A stretch of 64,000 nucleotides of DNA from an uncultured Candidatus Saccharibacteria bacterium (GCA_964639185.1 CAZXCN010000004.1:174-64173), one strand, 5' to 3'. Shown: positions 4,819 through 62,675, counted from the stretch's first letter. The notes: a model not told the origin generated them from the sequence alone. Numbers and translations: made by a program.

Positions 4819-5880
4819 TTATTTTATATAATCGCTACTTTTAAAACCACGTTCTTCGAACTCTTCCTTCATCATTAGGTCAACGAGGTCTTTGAATTTT
4901 ACCTTTGTATTCCAGTTCAATTTATTTTTAGCTTTACTTGGGTCACCCAATAACAAGTCAACTTCGCTTGGTCTGTAATACTGCTCGTCGATATTTATAA
5001 TATCTTTACCTGTTGCCTCGTCTGTACCCACTTCAGCAAGCCCAAATCCACTCCAGTTTATCTTGTACCCAATAAGTGATGAAGCATACTCGACGAATTC
5101 GCGTACAGAGTGTGTCTCGCCTGTGGCTATTACATAGTCATCCGGAGTATCCTGCTGAAGCATGAGCCACATCGCCTCTACATAATCATGGGCATAACCC
5201 CAGTCGCGCTTTGCATCGAGATTACCTAGAAATATCTTATCCTTCTTGCCGAGCTTTATATCGACTAAGCCCTCTACTATCTTCTTTGTAACAAATGTCC
5301 TACCACGGCGAGGTGACTCGTGGTTGAAAAGTATGCCGTTGCAGACAAACATATCATATGATTCGCGGTAGTTTACACAAATATGATGCGAGAAGACTTT
5401 CGCACATCCGTAGGGACTTGCTGGGTTAAAAGGAGTTGTTTCTTTCTGGGGAGTTTCCAGGACTTTGCCAAACATCTCAGAAGACCCTGCTTGGTAAAAG
5501 CGTATTGGCAAGCCACTTTCCTTCACTGCATCAAGCAACCGCAAGGTTCCCAGTGCATCTATATCGGCTGTGTATTCGGGTATATCAAAGCTGACACGCA
5601 CATGACTCTGCGCACCCAGATTGTAGACTTCATCGGGCTGAGCCTTCTTTATTATATTGTGTAGACTATATGAATCAGAAAGATCACCATAGTGGAGTAT
5701 TAGATTGCGATTGTCTACATGTGGATCCTGATATATTTTATCTAAACGTGCTGTATTAAAGCTCGATGAGCGCCTGATAACCCCGTGGACTTCATAACCT
5801 TTTGCAAGCAAAAACTCGGCTAGATATGATCCATCCTGCCCTGTGATACCTATTATTAGTGCTTTCTTTTTATTTTCCAT
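4819..5880 (-). CDS. gmd: GDP-mannose 4,6-dehydratase
   Basis: '[35 protein letters not shown]' is near-canonical for the Gmd N-terminus. Confidence 0.9.
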
Positions 5881-5883
5881 ATA

Positions 5884-6789
5884 TTATGTAATGTTATTAT
5901 ATATTTTCAATTCTTTTAAACCTTGTTCAATATTTATCTTTGGCTCCCAATTCAATAAATCTTTTGCTTTATTTATGTCAGCCTTCGTAACACGAGGCTC
6001 TACCCGTGGAGCGATATATTCTACCTTGCCACCGATAAGATCTGCGATTTTATTTATAGAATAAGTTTCATTGGTGCCAATATTTATCACTTCACCGTGG
6101 CCAACATTGCTACTCTCCATAGCCAATATGTTGGCACTAACCACATCGTGGACATTTATAAAGCTTCGGATCTGCTCACCGTCGCCTGTGATAGTCAGTG
6201 TCTGGCCCTTTTTATACATACCAATAAACTTGGCAATAACACTAGGGTATGCCCCACCCACACTTTGCCTTGGTCCATATACATTGAAATATCTCAAGGA
6301 AACAGTCTCTAGATTGTACACTTTTGAATACAAAGTGCAATAAACCTCACCCATGTATTTATGAGCCCCATATGGTGAAAGTGGAGAAGCTGTCATGGAC
6401 TCTACATAAGGCACCACCTCCTGATCACCATAGGCTGCAGATGAGGCAGCGAACATTAATCTGCGTACCTTGGCAAGTCGTGATGCTTCTAATACATTTA
6501 GTAGTCCTGTAACATTTATATCATGAGTTTCGATCGGATTCTCCAAAGAATATTGGACTTGTGGCATTGCCGCTTCGTGGAATACATAGGTGGCACCATT
6601 AAATATATCTTTGATATCTTGGAAGTTGCGTATATCCGCCTTGTGGAAAGTCGCCTTTGGGTTGATATTGTTCATGTCACCATATGACATATTGTCTATG
6701 ATGTGCACATCATACCCAAGCTCTACAAGGGCGTCCACAATATGTGACCCTATAAACCCTGCTCCTCCTGTAACGATTGTTTTAGTCAT
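5884..6789 (-). CDS. NAD-dependent sugar epimerase/dehydratase (UDP-glucose 4-epimerase family)
   Basis: 'VTGGAGFIGSH' Rossmann motif and 'YGAHKYMGE' (YxxxK) extended-SDR signature. Confidence 0.75.
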   Translation of the reverse strand: MTKTIVTGGAGFIGSHIVDALVELGYDVHIIDNMSYGDMNNINPKATFHKADIRNFQDIKDIFNGATYVFHEAAMPQVQYSLENPIETHDINVTGLLNVLEASRLAKVRRLMFAASSAAYGDQEVVPYVESMTASPLSPYGAHKYMGEVYCTLYSKVYNLETVSLRYFNVYGPRQSVGGAYPSVIAKFIGMYKKGQTLTITGDGEQIRSFINVHDVVSANILAMESSNVGHGEVINIGTNETYSINKIADLIGGKVEYIAPRVEPRVTKADINKAKDLLNWEPKINIEQGLKELKIYNNIT

Positions 6790-6790
6790 A

Positions 6791-8827
6791 TTAATTGTAT
6801 TTAAAATCTATTATATTCTTCTGGGCTTTGCCTGCAATCTCGTTGAATAATTTCTGATTACCTAATGCTTGAGCATACTTCATAAATAATGTATATGACC
6901 CTGGTAAATGAGGCGCAACTTCGATAGCCTTCCTATACGCCTCCTCGGTACCAATAAAGTCCCCAGACCAGACTTTAGCCTGAGCTATCCCCCAATACAC
7001 ATTTGGATTATTAGGTGCTAACTTCTGAGCTTTATCCAGAGTATCGAGCAATTTGGCTTTCAACTCTGGTGTATATGGTCTTTCAGTAAAGTAAGTCAGT
7101 GTGTTCTGTAAATATATCATTGTTATGTATAACCTATAATCTGTTTTGTTCTCTTCGGAAACCTTATCGAGATAGCTCAACAAAGCAGTAACATCATTAA
7201 TGGCATAAGGTAGAATTTGTTTATTACTTTTTATTGCTTGAGCATTGGATAAATAGTTACGATACGAATCATAAGACAAGCTACTTGCATCCCATTGTTC
7301 CCCAACACGTGGAGAACCTAAAAGCTTTGTATAGCTTTCTGATCTAGTATTTATCGGCATAGAAAATACATCGGAGAAAACACGCGCCTTACGAGCAGGT
7401 ATTATACTGAAATATATCCATACCGGAAAGAAAAATATGATTAATAAAGTTAATAAAAGATACTTATTAGAATGTTTTAACTTATCATGATCAGCTTTGC
7501 CAACAGAAAGTATAATCCCGGCAAATATAAATAGTGCCAAATATGACAAAGTGGAATCAAAAGTAAATAAATTGTTTATTATATAAGCAAAGACTAATCC
7601 TATTAGTACAGAAGCCTGTATACGATTGAACTTTTTATCTATATAAGACATATATATACCGTACAGAAGTGCCAAGATAAACAAACCGTACAACACAACA
7701 GCTGGGTAACCACCAGAAACACCTGTGTCATAATACATATTGTGCGCCTTATCCGCCCACCCTTCCATACTATTTTGGGTTAATAAAACATCTGGATTAA
7801 AATGCTTTTGAAAAGCTATTGAGTAGTTCTCAGGCCCATACCCTACCAAAGGGTGCTCATGCATAGCCTTTTGTGCTGTATCCCAGAATATAAAACGGCT
7901 TCCACGAGCTTCTTGAGCAAACTTATTGTGTAGACTTGTCCCAGGTGTGACCAATTGCATCCAAGCAACAACAAACACTACAAGGCCAATAAATACAAAA
8001 GATAGACTTAGATACTTATATTGCTTTTTGTTGGAAAGAAACATGTATCCCAAAAAGGCAACAATAGCACCTGACACAACAGCAAGTATAGTACCACGAG
8101 CACTACCTAGCAAACCATGCCCATTAAACAAACCATATATATTCAAAAACAAAGGTGACAACACAATAATAATTATAGTGATCCAGGAAAAATATTTTAT
8201 AAATTTATTATTTTTAATAAAAATAATAAATAAAGCCGCCGCTATAGAAAACAACAAGAATGTGGCTGTGAGGGTCGAGTTCCCTGCCAATCCACCACCG
8301 TTGTCATTTATAACAGAACTTAGTGAGGTTCTGAACCCATCTGTACCTAACCAGACACTTACAGCTAACACAAAAGAACTTGCCACAAGCCATTTGAAAA
8401 GATTGTTAATATAAACTAATCCATACTTGGCCGTAATAGATGCGACAACAACAGCTAGGGCGAGGCAGTGATATAAAGTGAGTAGACCAGTTCCACGACC
8501 TAATGCGCCCCAGAAAGACAAGCTAGGGTTATAGGCAGTTAGGCTCGACAATGTTAACCATGCGACAAAACCAAAAAGTGGAATAAAGTATATTAAAGTC
8601 TTCTTTGATAGCCTATATTTTGAATCAGTGCAGGCAGTATAAACCCAAACAAAAAATAATATCTCTATGAGACCATACATAAAGAAAGTCTTCGAAGTTA
8701 TATAAGCATAGAGTCTATTTTGCCAATAAAGAAGTGGTGTGAGGAAAACGAGGGCAAAAGACGCATATTGTAGTATTTTATCCTTTATATTCATAGATAT
8801 ATTATACCAGAAAAACCAAAAAGCCAC
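6791..8827 (-). CDS. O-antigen ligase/polymerase-like polytopic membrane protein with C-terminal TPR-like region
   Basis: About 10+ hydrophobic segments followed by a helical C-terminal region with TPR-like repeats ('AYRKAIEVAP', 'YWGIAQAKVW'). Confidence 0.55.
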   Translation of the reverse strand: MAFWFFWYNISMNIKDKILQYASFALVFLTPLLYWQNRLYAYITSKTFFMYGLIEILFFVWVYTACTDSKYRLSKKTLIYFIPLFGFVAWLTLSSLTAYNPSLSFWGALGRGTGLLTLYHCLALAVVVASITAKYGLVYINNLFKWLVASSFVLAVSVWLGTDGFRTSLSSVINDNGGGLAGNSTLTATFLLFSIAAALFIIFIKNNKFIKYFSWITIIIIVLSPLFLNIYGLFNGHGLLGSARGTILAVVSGAIVAFLGYMFLSNKKQYKYLSLSFVFIGLVVFVVAWMQLVTPGTSLHNKFAQEARGSRFIFWDTAQKAMHEHPLVGYGPENYSIAFQKHFNPDVLLTQNSMEGWADKAHNMYYDTGVSGGYPAVVLYGLFILALLYGIYMSYIDKKFNRIQASVLIGLVFAYIINNLFTFDSTLSYLALFIFAGIILSVGKADHDKLKHSNKYLLLTLLIIFFFPVWIYFSIIPARKARVFSDVFSMPINTRSESYTKLLGSPRVGEQWDASSLSYDSYRNYLSNAQAIKSNKQILPYAINDVTALLSYLDKVSEENKTDYRLYITMIYLQNTLTYFTERPYTPELKAKLLDTLDKAQKLAPNNPNVYWGIAQAKVWSGDFIGTEEAYRKAIEVAPHLPGSYTLFMKYAQALGNQKLFNEIAGKAQKNIIDFKYN

Positions 8828-8892
8828 CCATAAGGGTGGCTTTTTGGTTAACTTAACTTTTTACAAAGCTCAAGCTTCTTTAACTAATATTA

Positions 8893-16473: not shown

Positions 16474-17052
16474 ATGTTAGAATATTCAGAAATAAAGGAA
16501 AAGAAGGTAATAATATACGAGGATGAGCCTTGTGAGGTACTTGAGAGTCATGTAGCCCGTACACAACAGCGTAAACCTCAGAATCAGGTGAAATTAAAGA
16601 GCCTTATTACTGGACGCACTGTAAATACGACTTTCCATGCTTCAGACAAAGCTCATGAAGCTGATGTAAACAAGAAGGAGGTCAAGTTTTTATTTGCAAA
16701 CAAAGGCGAATACTGGTTCTGCGACCCTACCAATCCAAAGGACCGATTCCAGCTTTCCGATATTGTACTAGGTAGTTCTACTAAATTTCTAAAGCCAAAT
16801 GAATTAGTTACTGCTCTTGTTTGGGACAATGATGGCGAGGATCAGATCATAAGTATTAAACTTCCAGTAAAAATGGAATTTATAATCAAAGAGGCACCTC
16901 CCTCAATCAAAGGCAACACTGCAAATGGTGGGGGTAAAGTTGTAGTATTGGAAAATGGAATTAATTTAAATGTCCCCTTCTTCCTAAATACTGGAGACAA
17001 GATTCGTATAAATACAGAAACCGGCGACTACGTAGAAAGAGTAACTGAATAA
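16474..17052 (+). CDS. efp: Translation elongation factor P
   Basis: Three-domain EF-P pattern: '...VKLKSLITGRTVNTTF...', 'EYWFCDPTN', 'VPFFLNTGDKIRINTETGDYVERV'. Confidence 0.9.
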   Translation: MLEYSEIKEKKVIIYEDEPCEVLESHVARTQQRKPQNQVKLKSLITGRTVNTTFHASDKAHEADVNKKEVKFLFANKGEYWFCDPTNPKDRFQLSDIVLGSSTKFLKPNELVTALVWDNDGEDQIISIKLPVKMEFIIKEAPPSIKGNTANGGGKVVVLENGINLNVPFFLNTGDKIRINTETGDYVERVTE

Positions 17053-17061
17053 AATATAAAT

Positions 17062-17098
17062 TAAAAATTCCCTAGGCCTTGCCTAGGGAATTTTTAAT
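17062..17098. terminator. Bidirectional rho-independent terminator; copy A of the palindromic element ttaaaaattccctagg-N-cctagggaatttttaa
   Basis: 16-bp perfect stem flanked by A/T runs between convergent efp (+) and the M20 peptidase gene (-). Confidence 0.7.
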
Positions 17099-17100
17099 AT

Positions 17101-18195
17101 CTAATCTTGATTTTTAATAAACTCTTTTAATATCTTGTAAAATGTTTCCAAACTTTTTATATCAACCCATTCTTTATCACTTCCTATACCTCCGCCAATA
17201 GGACCAAATTCGATTCCAGCACAACCCACCTTAGAAAAGTGGTTTACATCAGATGTCCCGTGAGCACCACGCACAACCACATTACTCCCTGTAATATTTT
17301 TAGTGATTTTCTGTAAATCAATTAAATATTTATCACTTTTATCCGTAAAAACAGCTGGCTCATTTACTAAAACTTCTAGCTTGAAACCCCTAGGAAGTAT
17401 ATCTTTAATATTTTTAAGGATAGTCTTACTATCTTCTGAAATATATCTTATATCTAAGGACACTTTACAATCATCAGGAATTTTATTAAAAGCTAAATTA
17501 CTTGTTTCTATTTTACTTAAATTTATTGTTGTTACCCATTTTTCAGATATAGGTATCGGAAAATTATTTTTTAAAACAGAAAGAAATTCATTCATTTTCC
17601 AAATTGCATTTTCCCCTTTCCATGGATATGCTCCGTGTGCTGTTAGACCTTTTGTGGAAATGTTTAATTTTAATACTCCTTTTGCTTTATGAACGATATC
17701 AAAATTAGTAGGCTCACCCGCAAGTACAAAATCCGCACGGATACCTTTTTCTACTTGATATTTTGTACCATTAAATCCTCCTATTTCTTCATCTGTAACC
17801 AATTGTAAACCCAAAGGATAATCTACTTTAGTCGCCATATCTTTAAAAGCAAATATCATACATGCAGTATTTGCTTTCATATCCATAGAACCAGCACCAT
17901 ATAGCTTGTTGCCAATTATCCTTGGTGTATATTGTGTATCTTTTGCTGGTATAACATCCAAGTGAGCATTTAATAAAATTTTAAACTTCTTTGGTCTCTT
18001 TTCAGATTTATAAACTAATGCACTTTTAACACCATCTCTTTCAAATCTTTCTATTGTAAAATCTTTTAATTCAAGAAGTGCCAACTCTAAAACATCCCCC
18101 AAAGCTTTTGGGTTTCCTTCAACAGACTTTATAAAAATAAACTTTTTTGATAAAGATAAAATATTTTTTAACATAAATTTTAAATAAAAAACCAT
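17101..18195 (-). CDS. M20-family metallopeptidase/deacylase (ArgE/DapE-like)
   Basis: 'NAHLDVIP', 'GAGSMDMKA' (GxxDxK) and 'LVTDEEIGG' metal-ligand motifs are typical of M20 amidohydrolases. Confidence 0.75.
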   Translation of the reverse strand: MVFYLKFMLKNILSLSKKFIFIKSVEGNPKALGDVLELALLELKDFTIERFERDGVKSALVYKSEKRPKKFKILLNAHLDVIPAKDTQYTPRIIGNKLYGAGSMDMKANTACMIFAFKDMATKVDYPLGLQLVTDEEIGGFNGTKYQVEKGIRADFVLAGEPTNFDIVHKAKGVLKLNISTKGLTAHGAYPWKGENAIWKMNEFLSVLKNNFPIPISEKWVTTINLSKIETSNLAFNKIPDDCKVSLDIRYISEDSKTILKNIKDILPRGFKLEVLVNEPAVFTDKSDKYLIDLQKITKNITGSNVVVRGAHGTSDVNHFSKVGCAGIEFGPIGGGIGSDKEWVDIKSLETFYKILKEFIKNQD

Positions 18196-18242
18196 ATATA
18201 TTACTAAAAAATAACATATATGGTTTTGATTGTATCATACTT

Positions 18243-19568
18243 TTAAACTATCTCTCCAAAAACTGCTTGCCAATTCCCGTGCAGACGGCCTGATTTTACC
18301 TCATTGGAATCATATGGCAAAAACTCTCTGTGTCCACCCATCCAAACAGATATTCCATCAATATTTCCAAAGAATACCCTATCAATATATGCATACCTCA
18401 AACTGTCTTGTGCAATATTGTAAACAGTGGGTGGCTCACGTTCAATTTGAACAATATGTGGTCCACGATTTTTCAAACCATTCTTAACTTTCTTGCGAAA
18501 ATCTCCATCTGTTAAACGTCCTCTAACATGCCCGTAACATCCGTATGTACCTTGTGCTGGCTTTACTCGAATTGATATCTTACCAGACAATACATCTTGA
18601 AAACAAATTTTATGATTTTCTAAATAAAGAACAAATTCTTTTGCATTAAAATCATCAAATGTTTGTAGCAGGAAACCCATAGACATACTAGGCATATACC
18701 ATTTTGCGTCATTTATACGACGCAAATCATGTGAATGCCACTCTGGATTATCAATATTAAGAGTAATACTATTCTCTTTAATAATTTTCCGAAGATGCGG
18801 GATTGATAAAAGAGGATGTTCTACCGTGATACCTGGGTGCTTCAGCTTTTCTACAGGATCAGACGCTCGAACATACAATAAATAACCGCATTCGCCATTA
18901 TTTGATGATAAATAATCAACAAATTCATTCGGTCCAAAGAAGTTATCAAATCCCGAAAGTTCAAAAATTTCTTTCTCACACAATAGCTCATCAATATTTT
19001 TACCAAATTCTGAAGCTTTCATTGAGTCATACTTGTCTTGGGTAACTGCCAAAAGAGCAATGGGCATTCCAAATTTATTACGTAAAGAATTTAGCATGGA
19101 TTCAGTTTGTTCCCCATAAAAGGACTTAACCCCATTATTCTCATACACAGAACGTAATATTTGGTACAAAGCCCAACTATTCTCCATCTCAAAAATTCTT
19201 CCTCGAAGAATTCTCTTCACTTCCCCCACTTGCATGTTCTGCAATTCAAATATCAAGATATCTGTTAAGCCACACATGTCTATTTGAACAATCTGATTAA
19301 CAGGATTACCGTCTATAAAACAGTATCGATAATCTGTTGACCATTCACGATTTGCTTCTACAAGATTAGTAAAAGCTTTATTAGATTCATCGTATAGATC
19401 ACGAAGAGCTTCTACTACAACTTTAGGATACCTGATTTGAAAATCAGGAAATACTTGTGACGGTGATAAAGAAGACTTTGTTTCTTTAAGTACCACATTT
19501 GAATTTACTTTTTGCATTTTATTTTTATTTAATTGGTTGGTCGGGGCTTCTAGAATTACCCCGTACAA
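18243..19568 (-). CDS. Hypothetical protein, possible ATP-grasp-like amide ligase
   Basis: C-terminal third carries 'RVKPAQGTYGCYGHV', 'HIVQIE' and 'GISVWMGGHREF...LHGN', resembling the ATP-grasp phosphate-binding loop and downstream motifs. Weak call, by eye only. Confidence 0.35.
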   Translation of the reverse strand: MYGVILEAPTNQLNKNKMQKVNSNVVLKETKSSLSPSQVFPDFQIRYPKVVVEALRDLYDESNKAFTNLVEANREWSTDYRYCFIDGNPVNQIVQIDMCGLTDILIFELQNMQVGEVKRILRGRIFEMENSWALYQILRSVYENNGVKSFYGEQTESMLNSLRNKFGMPIALLAVTQDKYDSMKASEFGKNIDELLCEKEIFELSGFDNFFGPNEFVDYLSSNNGECGYLLYVRASDPVEKLKHPGITVEHPLLSIPHLRKIIKENSITLNIDNPEWHSHDLRRINDAKWYMPSMSMGFLLQTFDDFNAKEFVLYLENHKICFQDVLSGKISIRVKPAQGTYGCYGHVRGRLTDGDFRKKVKNGLKNRGPHIVQIEREPPTVYNIAQDSLRYAYIDRVFFGNIDGISVWMGGHREFLPYDSNEVKSGRLHGNWQAVFGEIV

Positions 19569-19608
19569 CCAATCAAATATTTTATAAAGAACAATTATTT
19601 TGCATAAA

Positions 19609-19641
19609 ACAAAACCCCTCCAATAATTTGGAGGGGTTTAT
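19609..19641 (-). terminator. Hairpin aaacccctcc-N8-ggaggggttt
   Basis: 10-bp GC-rich stem with flanking A/T. Lies between the rpsR terminator and the start of the 441-aa gene. Similar in sequence to the hairpin at 49664..49689. Confidence 0.5.
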
Positions 19642-19774
19642 AATCGAGAAATTTTTACAATAAATCAACGACAAGCCTCTCCAAACTATTTATGTTTGAA
19701 TGCCAGAAACTATATCGTGTAAATTTATTACTCATAAATCCATCATATAATACTCATTTTAAAAGTCAAGCAAT

Positions 19775-19815
19775 ACACAAAATTCCCTAGGCAAGACCTA
19801 GGGAATTTTGTGTAT
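19775..19815 (-). terminator. rho-independent terminator of the rpsF-ssb-rpsR operon; copy B of the palindromic element acacaaaattccctagg-N-cctagggaattttgtgt
   Basis: 17-bp perfect stem immediately after the rpsR stop. Stem arms nearly identical to the hairpin at 17062..17098. Confidence 0.7.
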
Positions 19816-19820
19816 TTAGC

Positions 19821-20021
19821 TTATTTTGCTACGAATGGTAGAAGGCCCATGAAGCGAGCGCGCTTGATAGCTTCAGATAGCTTGCGCTGGTTCTTTGCTG
19901 TCACGTTTGTACGACGGCGTGCCATCATACGAGCGTTTGGAGCAAGGAAACGACGAAGTAATTCTATGTCCTTGTAGTCAATATGCTTTATATTGTTTGA
20001 AGAAAAATAATCTTGTTTCAT
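19821..20021 (-). CDS. rpsR: 30S ribosomal protein S18
   Basis: 'RRFLAPNARMMARRRTNVTAKNQRKLSEAIKRARFMGLLPF' matches the conserved S18 core. Confidence 0.85.
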   Translation of the reverse strand: MKQDYFSSNNIKHIDYKDIELLRRFLAPNARMMARRRTNVTAKNQRKLSEAIKRARFMGLLPFVAK

Positions 20022-21111: not shown

Positions 21112-21942
21112 CTACATGTTAAAAGTCTTTATAATTTTGCTTTTTATTTGATCTATATCATCTTCTTGCTTTTGGGCACTATTACTTTTGTATAAATCAG
21201 AATGATAAACTTTCAAAGCTTCATCTAAAGTTTCTGGAATCTTTATCGTTTTATTTACGTCACTCCTATTCTCAAAAGTTTTTAAGTCAAAGTGTACAGA
21301 TTTCCATATTTTTTCTGCCATATTTTTGTCGGGCAAGGCATTAATTTTTTCTAAAAATAAATGCCTATATTTTTCAATACCAGTCCCAACACGTGCATGG
21401 AACATACCAGCAATCGCAGGACCAATATGAGCGATTTTAGGTTCTTTCTTTATTAAAGAATTTTTTTCCTCATCAGACATTTCAGAATTATATTTTGACT
21501 CAACCATCTTTTTATACTCTTCATGCATTTTCTCAAACTCAATAAAATAGTCAATTGAATTTTCCAAAATCTCATCACTTAAAACCTTCGTTCGTAAATC
21601 ATGATAATATTTTTCAAAATCATCCTCAGAAAGATTTAGCTTATTTTTAAACTTAGATAAATATAGTGATTCTAGTAGTTGCGAGTTGTCTATCCATATA
21701 TCTTTTGGTATTTTTTCTTCGTCAATATAAATAAATGCATCTATGTCACTATCAATATTAGCTTGTTCCCCTTTTATCATTGACCCATACACAGTAGCAC
21801 CAAGAGCTTCAGGGTGTTCTTTTTGAAATCCCTTAACTGTATTACGAAAGTTATCTAGCCTTGCATGAGCAATACTTTCAGTAGCAGGTAAAAATCTTGG
21901 TTCTTGCCCTTTATTTATTTTATCTATAATTTGCTCGTTCAT
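21112..21942 (-). CDS. Pol-beta-superfamily nucleotidyltransferase with helical C-terminal domain
   Basis: 'YGSMIKGEQANIDSDIDAFIY' fits the GSx9-11[DE]h[DE]h nucleotidyltransferase motif. Start overlaps the tatD stop region. Confidence 0.5.
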   Translation of the reverse strand: MNEQIIDKINKGQEPRFLPATESIAHARLDNFRNTVKGFQKEHPEALGATVYGSMIKGEQANIDSDIDAFIYIDEEKIPKDIWIDNSQLLESLYLSKFKNKLNLSEDDFEKYYHDLRTKVLSDEILENSIDYFIEFEKMHEEYKKMVESKYNSEMSDEEKNSLIKKEPKIAHIGPAIAGMFHARVGTGIEKYRHLFLEKINALPDKNMAEKIWKSVHFDLKTFENRSDVNKTIKIPETLDEALKVYHSDLYKSNSAQKQEDDIDQIKSKIIKTFNM

Positions 21943-32491: not shown

Positions 32492-32748
32492 ACTTCAATT
32501 ATATCACAACTATCAAAACCCTTATTTGACAAGGGTTAGTGGGATTGCTATATTGAATGGGTAATGAAAATTTACGCAAAACAGATCAATAGTTCTCCGG
32601 TACCGCAAGCTGACAATTTGATGGCTGGTTTTTGCGTTTAAATATACTCTCTATAATTTAACTTAAATATAAACACCAGCCCTCAAATGGCTGGTGTTTA
32701 TATTTACAAAAAAAACAATTTGCACATTCACAACTTAATTTAAAAAAC

Positions 32749-32988
32749 ATGAAAAACATCATCCAAAACATTGCGGGTTTACTTGGGCTATTTCTATTTG
32801 CCCTTCTTTTACTAATTTTATTAATCTTGTGGTATATAACTGGTATACCGAACAAGATTCTTTGCTTTTTATCTCCAAAGTATAAATTACACTATGAACA
32901 AAAATGTAAAGAGAAAGAAGAGATGGAAAGAAAAAAGTTCAATGAATCCACTATGAATCGTGGTTGGGCCTTTCAAAACCTAAGGTAA
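32749..32988 (+). CDS. Small hypothetical membrane protein
   Basis: N-terminal hydrophobic helix 'LLGLFLFALLLLILLILWYITG' followed by a charged tail. Followed by a terminator. Confidence 0.3.
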   Translation: MKNIIQNIAGLLGLFLFALLLLILLILWYITGIPNKILCFLSPKYKLHYEQKCKEKEEMERKKFNESTMNRGWAFQNLR

Positions 32989-33006
32989 TTCTCATCCTAA
33001 AAATTC

Positions 33007-33042
33007 AAAATGCTTCCGTAATATTACGGAAGCATTTTTTTA
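33007..33042 (+). terminator. rho-independent terminator
   Basis: Stem 'aaaatgcttccgta' / 'tacggaagcatttt' with a 4-nt loop and a T-run. Confidence 0.7.
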
Positions 33043-33107
33043 TTAATAAATTTTTATATAAAACCACTTAGCCACGGCCGTGGCTATTATGGTGTTTATG
33101 TTAATTT

Positions 33108-41703: not shown

Positions 41704-41774
41704 AAAGCCACTTTAACATATTTTGTCTAATATATAAATAAAAAGCTTGAGGTTTTACCTCAAGCTTTTTATTT

Positions 41775-42104
41775 TTACCTTACATCTCCATCGCCTTGTA
41801 TTGTACCCCTCTCTTTTCTGGATTGAAGTTTATCTACATTTGACTTTGCAACATCATCAAGTTCTATACCCAAGTCATTGGCCAATACTGCCAAGTACCA
41901 TAATACGTCACCTAGCTCGCCTTTCAATGCATCCTTTCTTTCATCACTCATCTGTTCACCATCATCACCTCGAAGCCATTTCTTTATCTTACCCATGACC
42001 TCCCCCGCTTCATTACCCAAACCAAGTGCAGGATAAATAATATTATATTTCGCTGGGTGCATAGCAGTAGTTAATGCTTTCTTTTGATATTCATTTAATT
42101 CCAT
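41775..42104 (-). CDS. mazG: MazG-like nucleoside triphosphate pyrophosphohydrolase
   Basis: 'LGNEAGEVMGKIKK' and 'ELGDVLWYLAVLANDLGI' are typical of the all-alpha MazG/HisE fold. Confidence 0.7.
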   Translation of the reverse strand: MELNEYQKKALTTAMHPAKYNIIYPALGLGNEAGEVMGKIKKWLRGDDGEQMSDERKDALKGELGDVLWYLAVLANDLGIELDDVAKSNVDKLQSRKERGTIQGDGDVR

Positions 42105-49605: not shown

Positions 49606-49663
49606 CCTGCGGGCGTATATAAATACATACTACCCCTAATACATCGAAAAGTCAATAAACATA

Positions 49664-49689
49664 AAACCCCTCTAAAATAGAGGGGTTTT
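49664..49689 (-). terminator. rho-independent terminator (aaaacccctct-N5-agaggggtttt)
   Basis: 11-bp stem directly after the stop of the DUF305 gene. Same stem family as 19609..19641. Confidence 0.65.
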
Positions 49690-49693
49690 ATGT

Positions 49694-50083
49694 TTATTTA
49701 AACCACTGTTTTTGCCATTCTCGCATCAAAGTAATTTCTTTTGTTTGAGCAGTTATGATTTCGTTAGCAAGTTTAGTTAATTCAGGACGCTTTGAAGTAA
49801 CAAGGACCATTTGTGCCATTTCTACAGCACCTTGGTGATGAACAATCATTTCAGATAGAAATGCTTTATCAAATTCTTCTCCTGTTTTTCCTTCAAGACC
49901 CATATTGTCCATCATAGTCCCATCTGGCATCTTGTGCATCATCATTTTATGAGAGTAATCTTTCTTATCTCCACCTCGGTGATGATTCATCATAAAAAAA
50001 CCACTTGTAATAATTACCCCAACAAATAAACCAATAATTCCATAAAGTACACTCTTGTTTATATTTATGTTTATGTTTTTCAT
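49694..50083 (-). CDS. DUF305-family secreted four-helix-bundle protein
   Basis: N-terminal TM/signal and 'AFLSEMIVHHQGAVEMAQ' (DUF305 signature HHxxA). Confidence 0.55.
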   Translation of the reverse strand: MKNINININKSVLYGIIGLFVGVIITSGFFMMNHHRGGDKKDYSHKMMMHKMPDGTMMDNMGLEGKTGEEFDKAFLSEMIVHHQGAVEMAQMVLVTSKRPELTKLANEIITAQTKEITLMREWQKQWFK

Positions 50084-58630: not shown

Positions 58631-58652
58631 TTGTACATTATAACATATAAAT

Positions 58653-58676
58653 AAAACACCCTATAGGGTGTTTTAT
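58653..58676 (-). terminator. rho-independent terminator of nrdAB
   Basis: 'aaaacaccctatagggtgtttt' right after the nrdB stop. Confidence 0.65.
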
Positions 58677-58696
58677 TTATAGTATTTAGATGCTGA

Positions 58697-62582: not shown

Positions 62583-62622
62583 AAAAAATCCCCACCCAAA
62601 AAATGTAATTTTTTGGGTGGGG
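62583..62622 (-). terminator. rho-independent terminator of Cys-rich paralog 2
   Basis: 'ccccacccaaaaaat-gta-attttttgggtgggg', a 15-bp stem with an A-run on the plus strand (T-run on the minus strand). Confidence 0.7.
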
Positions 62623-62675
62623 ATAACCTCTCTTTTGCATTTCCCTACTACTTCCTACCTACTACTTTCTACTTG

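Follow-up and report, generated by a model that had tools for sequence, protein, structure and literature searches.

Enzymes of the ArgE/DapE type cleave N-acyl or peptide links and so release the alpha-amino group of an L-amino acid, and proteins of the CP_ATPgrasp families associate with alpha-E and transglutaminase-like genes. Control of transcription by leader-peptide attenuators is established for trp, pheA and pheST in Escherichia coli and for aroF in Corynebacterium glutamicum (PMC11802643). The locus described here lies in a 64,000-nucleotide stretch of DNA from an uncultured Candidatus Saccharibacteria bacterium (GCA_964639185.1, CAZXCN010000004.1:174-64173; the whole stretch is called the window, and positions are counted from its first letter). 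The window is low in GC, and the relatives of its genes are found in metagenome bins of the Patescibacteria, or candidate phyla radiation (CPR). Between efp and rpsR it carries, on the minus strand, a gene for a predicted ATP-grasp-type ligase followed by a gene for an M20 metallohydrolase, and ahead of both a leader of 300 nt that comprises a promoter, an attenuator and a short open reading frame (ORF) for an aromatic leader peptide. No other feature of the locus is as informative as this leader, which an earlier reading of the DNA (the sequence-only reading) had missed. We consider it probable that the leader and the two genes form one transcription unit controlled by ribosome-mediated attenuation, and that the operon takes part in a response to aromatic amino-acid starvation beside genes for 3-deoxy-D-arabinoheptulosonate 7-phosphate (DAHP) synthase and prephenate enzymes. 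A literature search found nothing on leader-peptide attenuation in CPR bacteria.

ORF calls in the window showed that the ligase-like gene and the M20 gene occupy the efp-rpsR interval, both on the minus strand, as the sequence-only reading had proposed when it placed two co-directional genes there. The gene order is unchanged in L094, an independent assembly of the same species, and its leader and both flanking hairpins are identical to those of the window, demonstrating that the locus is not an assembly artefact. The M20 gene lies directly downstream of the ligase gene, on the same strand, in 41 of the 43 non-redundant ligase loci that had enough downstream sequence, with gaps of -16 to +256 nt. 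This adjacency bears out the earlier idea that the ligase and the M20 protein are a true functional pair. No other neighbour recurs at the level of M20, and the flanking genes vary from genome to genome; among the CPR genomes with the pair are those of an 840-kb contig (CBFHKH010000001.1) and a 794-kb contig (Ga0209514_10000012). M20 is the more conserved partner, with 52-66% identity as against 40-50% for the ligase. In CPR bacteria the ligase and M20 genes thus make up an ancient operon, complete in itself, that occurs in many contexts, and not a recent cassette.

All elements of the leader lie on the minus strand. A sequence scan found a sigma-70-like promoter (TTGACT-16-TATGAT, 19742-19769) that ends 6 nt ahead of the leader ATG. 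The leader ORF (19655-19735) has 26 codons and is translated as MSNKFTRYSFWHSNINSLERLVVDLL (begins MSNKFTRYSFWHSN); homologous aromatic leaders are found in many loci. Its codons R-Y-S-F-W-H-S-N make up region 1 (19694-19718), which pairs with region 2 (19668-19686) in the minimum free energy (MFE) structure. Region 2 can pair either with region 1 or, as an antiterminator, with the terminator's 5' arm; the duplex had a dG of -11.4 as against -6.0 for shuffled sequences. Regions 3 and 4 form the attenuator terminator (19603-19639), identified by a terminator scan and by folding, which begins 16 nt past the stop of the leader ORF and consists of a 12-bp stem (19639-19612) and then UUUUGUUUU. The MFE of the window leader RNA was -40 kcal/mol (z -4.6), with regions 1 and 2 paired and the terminator formed. 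When region 1 or the 3' arm of the terminator was withheld, an alternative fold appeared in which region 2 paired with the 5' arm of the terminator. The Trp codon of the leader lies at 19705-19703, and from these coordinates a ribosome whose A site holds this codon would mask region 1, with region 2 still available for pairing. No Rfam family matched in the window at the gathering thresholds; a permissive search gave sub-threshold matches driven by the terminator, and Phe_leader scored 24-29 bits against a cut-off of 55 bits.

Another strong hairpin (ATTGGTTGTACGGGG...CCCCGACCAACCAAT, 19534-19575, minus strand) is seen in the sequence between the attenuator and the start codon of the ligase gene. 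It is followed by no T run, no Shine-Dalgarno sequence can be seen, and a comparable hairpin occupies the same place in loci L001 and L089. A second candidate for an aromatic short ORF (sORF), at 33007-33075 of the window, turned out to be the terminator of an operon encoding isoleucyl-tRNA synthetase (IleRS) and a Nudix protein, not a leader.

We then compared the regions upstream of the ligase gene across loci, counting as aromatic any sORF in which at least 4 of 8 consecutive residues were W, F, Y or H, Trp included. Such sORFs were present on the sense strand in 22 of 44 non-redundant regions and on the antisense strand in 3 of 44 (p = 1e-5). Examples are ..HSFWFSN.., ..NSYHWAAFF.., ..NYWHWYNHN.., ..NWYHYHNLP.., ..NYWFYFHPL.., ..AWYFYFSHSN.. 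and ..LFFWFYFFN..; the leader of the closest relative reads ..KRWYHFLQN.., and those of L001 and L089 read ..NSYHWAAFFRNE... In 18 loci a terminator follows 15-48 nt past the sORF stop, and in 13 of these 18 the duplex of a segment within the sORF and the terminator's 5' arm is significantly stronger than that of shuffled sequences (mean z -3.4, with shuffles that preserved mononucleotide content only). The terminator sequence differs among loci, and region 2 varies together with it. In most loci the leader ATG lies 6-11 nt past a sigma-70-like -10 box, a spacing which suggests that the leaders are translated from leaderless or near-leaderless transcripts. tRNA genes were ruled out as the cause of the conserved upstream DNA. 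In L021, tandem aromatic leader ORFs (..AYHWFNY.. and ..NYWHWYNHN.., at 6647-6781 and about 6870-6960) lie ahead of one ligase gene and may form a double attenuator.

Leaders of this kind also precede genes of known aromatic function. A scan of 875 kb of loci for a leader plus terminator matched about 20 non-redundant sites ahead of the ligase gene and about 10 at other places. In L008 a leader (MKILTNNWFYFYSFTF..) and terminator precede a DAHP synthase gene, and in L044 a leader (..NRAFYFWFYFTPS..) precedes genes for DAHP synthase, prephenate dehydrogenase/dehydratase and chorismate mutase. A prephenate dehydratase gene directly follows the pair in L068, in the order ligase-M20-prephenate dehydratase, with a gap of 6 nt after M20, and genes of the Trp_repressor family adjoin the pair in five distinct loci. 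Within the window itself, no genes for DAHP synthase, prephenate enzymes, TrpR-like, decarboxylase, agmatinase-family or deoxyhypusine-synthase-like proteins were found.

These leaders outside the pair also bear on whether the small ORF could encode the precursor of a ribosomally synthesised and post-translationally modified peptide (RiPP), which the ATP-grasp enzyme would modify, as in graspetides and pheganomycin, and the M20 enzyme would trim. In many RiPP clusters a small ORF and then a hairpin stand ahead of an ATP-grasp gene, as here, and the peptide family is recognisable across lineages. However, peptides and hairpins of this kind also stand before genes for DAHP synthase and prephenate enzymes that have no ATP-grasp gene with them, and many members of the ligase family have no such ORF. 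Moreover, it is the composition of the peptide that is conserved, not its sequence, with no conserved Asp/Glu and Ser/Thr/Lys cross-link motifs, and a portion of the ORF varies in step with the terminator sequence, a constraint at the RNA level. We rejected a RiPP precursor on the leaders that precede aromatic biosynthesis genes and on the RNA constraint, and regard this explanation as very improbable.

The first gene of the operon (18243-19517, minus strand) encodes a 424-aa protein of an unclassified family. The sequence-only reading had given it 441 aa, and an ORF of that length does exist from a TTG start (18243-19568, minus strand), but the ATG at 19517 fits the N-termini of the homologues better. 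No contig was returned when the 441-aa product was looked up exactly. The strings RVKPAQGTYGCYGHV, HIVQIE and LHGN, on which an ATP-grasp assignment had been based, are all present in the translation of the 441-aa ORF. Neither the 424-aa protein singly nor a profile of 58 sequences matched any Pfam, NCBIfam or PDB sequence; for the protein and each of the 58 relatives no family, whether Pfam CP_ATPgrasp_1, CP_ATPgrasp_2, GSP_synth or any other ATP-grasp profile, reached E <= 1, and the profile search of PDB sequences with the family gave zero matches. The family has 216 relatives at 40-64% identity, none with an assigned name, and an exhaustive hidden Markov model search recovered 189 family representatives among 1.84 billion proteins. 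It is a small family restricted to CPR bacteria, and a literature search found nothing on it.

An AlphaFold2 model of the 424-aa protein, built from the alignment, had a pLDDT of 94 and a predicted TM-score (pTM) of 0.92. The best Foldseek matches among solved structures were 3n6x (E 3e-6, probability 1.0, TM 0.46), which we take to be a circularly permuted ATP-grasp protein, and then 3k1t, followed by weak matches to D-Ala-D-Ala ligases, biotin carboxylase, PurK and RimK. The model thus resembles solved ATP-grasp enzymes in three dimensions, an assignment made from a predicted structure with moderate TM-scores. Eleven positions (K319, P320, G326, G329, H330, Q357, Q78, D80, E110, E112 and N113) are invariant in the 58 sequences, and E359 is nearly so. 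These residues form a motif KPxxGxYGCYGH from K319 and a Q357-x-E motif near the C-terminus, and Q78-x-D80 and E110-x-E112-N113 motifs near the N-terminus, and they sit on the predicted strands 316-320, 354-358, 76-82 and 108-112. Their order is reversed relative to that of a canonical ATP-grasp enzyme. K319 and the Gly-rich loop would bind phosphate, Q357 and E359 would form the adenine hinge, and the QxD and ExEN motifs would bind Mg. Taken together, the confident model and the invariant motifs indicate that the protein is an ATP-grasp enzyme of circularly permuted type. The earlier guess of an ATP-grasp protein, possibly of the circularly permuted or glutathionylspermidine-synthase-like kind, therefore holds at the level of fold and motifs but not at that of sequence families, where no profile matched.

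About one sixth of the family members carry an N-terminal extension of 380-760 aa, of at least three unrelated types, in which no Pfam domain was found. Such members include proteins P0123-P0128, P0154 and P0183 and those of loci L032, L037, L058, L064 and L075; L058 and L075 share one type of extension, and both adjoin TrpR-family genes.

The structural match raises the question of polyamine-conjugate metabolism, in which the pair would make and cleave a glutathionylspermidine-like or other amide-linked polyamine conjugate. The top match, 3n6x, is labelled a putative glutathionylspermidine synthase, and in L001, L002, L003 and L089 the pair lies among genes for arginine/ornithine decarboxylase, arginase-family and deoxyhypusine-synthase-like proteins. 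Such neighbours occur in a single clade and so count, in effect, as one event in evolution, and two loci of this clade, L001 and L089, still have the aromatic leader. The 424-aa family has no sequence match to GSP_synth, and the name of 3n6x is an unverified structural-genomics label. Taken together, a role in polyamine conjugation seems improbable to us. A related idea, that the pair modifies elongation factor P (EF-P), was suggested by the deoxyhypusine-synthase-like neighbours and the adjacency to efp; we rejected it on the one-clade neighbourhood and on efp being convergent and separately terminated. The gene set at L001 5112-11800, L003 9431-13734 and L089 2750-4129 looks like a putative arginine-to-homospermidine (or hypusine-like) set in CPR bacteria.

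The second gene of the operon (17101-18195, minus strand) encodes a 364-aa ArgE/DapE-like M20 metallohydrolase. The catalytic domain (PF01546 Peptidase_M20, 9.5e-24, 84.9 bits, cut-off 24.6) and the inserted dimerisation domain (PF07687 M20_dimer, 1.7e-15, 57.3 bits, cut-off 21) were both recognised by Pfam, in agreement with the sequence-only reading. M20 enzymes of the ArgE/DapE subfamily have five metal ligands (His, Asp, Glu, Glu/Asp and His) and a catalytic Glu. Among 36 operon-linked M20 proteins, including that of the window, H78, D80, D105 and E136 are invariant and E161 is conserved. The position of the DapE metal ligand His349 is Gly in 31 of the 36, an invariant Asp (D340) comes shortly after it, and E137, the adjacent metal-binding Glu, is Gln in six. 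These substitutions suggest that the operon-linked subfamily has either one metal or a rebuilt or altered second metal site.

In NCBIfam and among PDB sequences, the M20 protein is matched best by DapE and ArgE, and LysX (ATP-grasp) and LysK (M20) form an established protect/deprotect pair in the LysW pathway. The pair could on these grounds serve a diaminopimelate-, lysine- or arginine-type pathway, carrying out LysX/LysK or DapE-like steps whose substrate, bound to a carrier protein or N-acylated, would have no relation to aromatic amino acids. Yet the M20 protein falls below every NCBIfam equivalog cut-off, that of YgeY included; the DapE, ArgE and LysK models all score far under theirs (DapE, 165 vs 381 bits), and the DapE-ArgE subfamily model also stays below its own (156 vs 217.6). 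The neighbouring genes include none like LysW, LysZ, LysY or LysJ, the sequence of the ligase does not resemble RimK/LysX, and the regulation points to aromatic amino acids. We find such a pathway hard to credit.

The arrangement that we favour, a single unit under ribosome-mediated attenuation, would work as follows. Positions 17060-19816 would constitute one minus-strand transcription unit running from the promoter through the leader ORF, the attenuator, the ligase gene and the M20 gene to the terminator H1. When charged Phe-, Tyr-, Trp- or His-tRNA is scarce, a ribosome would stall at codons 8-12 of the leader (Y-S-F-W-H) and cover region 1, region 2 would be free to form a helix with the terminator's 5' arm, and transcription would continue into the operon. 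When the tRNAs are charged, regions 1:2 and 3:4 would form and transcription would stop at 19612. By analogy with known ATP-grasp enzymes, the ligase may activate a carboxylate with ATP as an acyl-phosphate and join it to an amine, and the M20 protein, as an ArgE/DapE-type hydrolase, may free an L-amino acid from an amide-linked intermediate. The net outcome would be that free aromatic L-amino acids are made available, as a salvage step or a protect/deprotect step.

Several observations weigh against this interpretation. The window leader is without a Shine-Dalgarno sequence and would need leaderless initiation, and about half of the upstream regions have no clear aromatic leader by the criterion used, some of them being short intergenic regions or belonging to ligases with long N-terminal extensions. 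Enrichment in the leaders extends to His and Asn, and the sensed signal may accordingly be wider than Phe, Tyr and Trp. The closest clade has the pair among polyamine genes, and the M20 subfamily is without one metal ligand. Finally, it would be futile for a ligase to make and a hydrolase to break one and the same bond, and the chemistry of the proposed role is left unexplained; the two enzymes must therefore act on different bonds or be separated by a further step. Tentatively, and with less confidence than we place in an attenuated operon that answers aromatic starvation, we suggest that ligase-M20 could be an unrecognised ATP-dependent step that supplies aromatic amino acids in CPR bacteria, either by salvage of N-acylated, peptide-bound or conjugated Phe, Tyr or Trp or as a protect/deprotect step replacing a missing enzyme. 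It would belong to a shikimate/prephenate starvation regulon controlled by mixed Trp/Phe/Tyr/His attenuators, probably on leaderless transcripts, and elsewhere by TrpR-family repressors.

The unit is bounded by two palindromes of the form AAAATTCCCTAGG-N5-CCTAGGGAATTTT. The sequence-only reading had placed them correctly at 17062-17098 and 19775-19815, and the terminator scanner extends them to 17060-17098 (H1) and 19772-19816 (H2). H1, an 18-pair hairpin with T runs between the convergent stops of efp and the M20 gene, is a bidirectional intrinsic terminator common to efp (plus strand) and the ligase-M20 operon (minus strand). H2, a 20-pair hairpin 5 nt past the rpsR stop, is the terminator of the rpsF-ssb-rpsR operon. 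Both are identical in L094, and both score as terminators. The efp gene (16474-17052, plus strand; Pfam EFP_N and Elong-fact-P_C) is a convergent neighbour outside the operon, and rpsR (19821-20021, minus strand), an ORF for ribosomal protein S18 with S18-family genes at the equivalent place in L093 and L094, belongs to a separate transcription unit upstream. The near-identity of the two palindromes noted earlier is real: in inverted orientation they have a 31-nt core in common with one mismatch, and a TTAAAAxTCAAG motif about 10 nt off on the module side is also common to both. Exact matches to AATTCCCTAGG in the window are the four arms of H1 and H2 only. H1 and H2 share an origin, because about 17 independent identical positions exceed chance, and their common core is probably a local duplication tied to a rearrangement.

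We asked whether the palindromes are instead the inverted terminal repeats, or a duplicated target, of a module placed between efp and rpsR, as the sequence-only reading had supposed. The copies are near-identical, with inverted similarity running some 10 nt further on the module side, and the M20 gene has a slightly lower GC content (0.30 vs 0.34-0.40). The slot is also variable. In L093, whose EF-P is 81% identical, the backbone ftsK-x-recA-efp ... rpsR-ssb-rpsF-TatD-MetRS (MetRS, methionyl-tRNA synthetase) is that of the window, and a class IV aminotransferase gene (branched-chain/D-amino-acid/aminodeoxychorismate-lyase family, 5741-6760) fills the slot between two unlike terminators; this gene has its own promoter, without a leader peptide. 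Since L093 holds a different gene on the same backbone, the location of the pair is lineage-specific. In two other relatives rplK-nusG follows efp, and the pair itself lies in differing contexts in other genomes. Synteny in CPR bacteria is generally low, however, and differing contexts need not imply mobility. No transposase, integrase or recombinase was found among the window ORFs near the gene pair, and the L093 slot is filled, not empty. The further copies predicted for a repeat did not appear: there are none beyond the two in the window, and in 185,579 species genomes (one per species, the window's own genome lying outside the set) the exact matches came to six single hairpins, unrelated to one another and roughly as many as chance would give, and no repeat family. 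In addition, the hairpins sit where terminators are required, between the convergent efp and M20 genes and right after the rpsR stop, and many similar hairpins occur in the window. Of the proposed insertion, then, the variable slot stands but no sign of a mobile element does, and we regard a cassette bounded by repeats as unlikely. H1 and H2 are ordinary transcription terminators that bound the unit, which corrects a tempting misreading in which paired terminators are taken for the ends of a mobile element.

Other long perfect or near-perfect A-tract/T-tract palindromes lie at gene boundaries of the window (8814-8849, 33007-33038, 41728-41782, 49654-49698, 58646-58681 and 62588-62624), and the genome seems to rely on bidirectional intrinsic terminators. 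A few further features of the neighbourhood were recorded. The loop of EF-P that holds the modified Lys/Arg site in other bacteria reads ..HVARTQQRKPQNQVKLK.. in the window efp and differs from the usual KPGKG motif. A gene for a 276-aa Pol-beta-type nucleotidyltransferase (21112-21942, minus strand) separates rpsF from the TatD gene; L094 has it too, but it is missing at that position in L093, a second lineage-specific difference in this neighbourhood. A stretch of about 600 nt (32492-33107) between a GDSL-like gene and the Nudix/IleRS operon is without an ORF of at least 80 aa.

CPR bacteria (Patescibacteria) make up a large and mostly uncultured part of bacterial diversity, and how they acquire costly amino acids is poorly understood. 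In this setting, an enzyme family without a sequence match in Pfam, NCBIfam or solved structures gains a fold, a fixed partner and a candidate signal, namely aromatic amino-acid limitation. Classical leader-peptide attenuation is also documented in CPR bacteria, apparently on leaderless transcripts, and the pattern can be used to find further members of the regulon.

Compared with described systems, the ligase is closest to the CP_ATPgrasp_1/2 proteins (3n6x, Mfla_0391), which are its best structural match and in which, likewise, the Mg-site strands (QxD, ExEN) precede the phosphate-binding Lys, the Gly-rich loop and the QxE hinge in the chain. It differs in having no detectable sequence-profile relationship to them, with a TM-score of 0.46, and in its partner, which is an M20 hydrolase. 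The M20 protein has the catalytic and dimerisation domains of DapE, ArgE and carboxypeptidase G2 (M20A dimeric enzymes; closest solved relative, 2rb7) and keeps their His-x-Asp motif, bridging Asp, catalytic Glu and dimer-domain His, whereas its subfamily replaces the last metal-binding His with Gly and, less often, the neighbouring Glu with Gln, and it is the equivalog of no named enzyme. As a pair, the two genes recall LysX/ArgX with LysK/ArgE of the LysW pathways, where an ATP-grasp ligase and an ArgE/DapE-type M20 enzyme are likewise encoded together; there an amide is formed and a free L-amino acid later released, and the window pair may by analogy do the same. Unlike those pathways, the window-type pair has no carrier protein, kinase, reductase or aminotransferase genes beside it, its ligase comes from a different, permuted family, its M20 protein stays under the LysK/ArgE cut-offs, and its regulation is aromatic, not Lys/Arg. 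As for the leader, trpL, pheL and pheM of E. coli and aroR of C. glutamicum control aromatic amino-acid genes, as the CPR leaders probably do, although the window operon contains no recognised aromatic-pathway gene and resides in a CPR host. The CPR leaders also mix Trp, Phe, Tyr and His codons, their ORFs begin 6-11 nt after the -10 box and are probably leaderless, and no Rfam family reaches threshold on the window leader. What the window leader has in common with these four is a short ORF with clustered regulatory codons (PMC11802643), followed by overlapping 1:2, 2:3 and 3:4 helices that end in a terminator.

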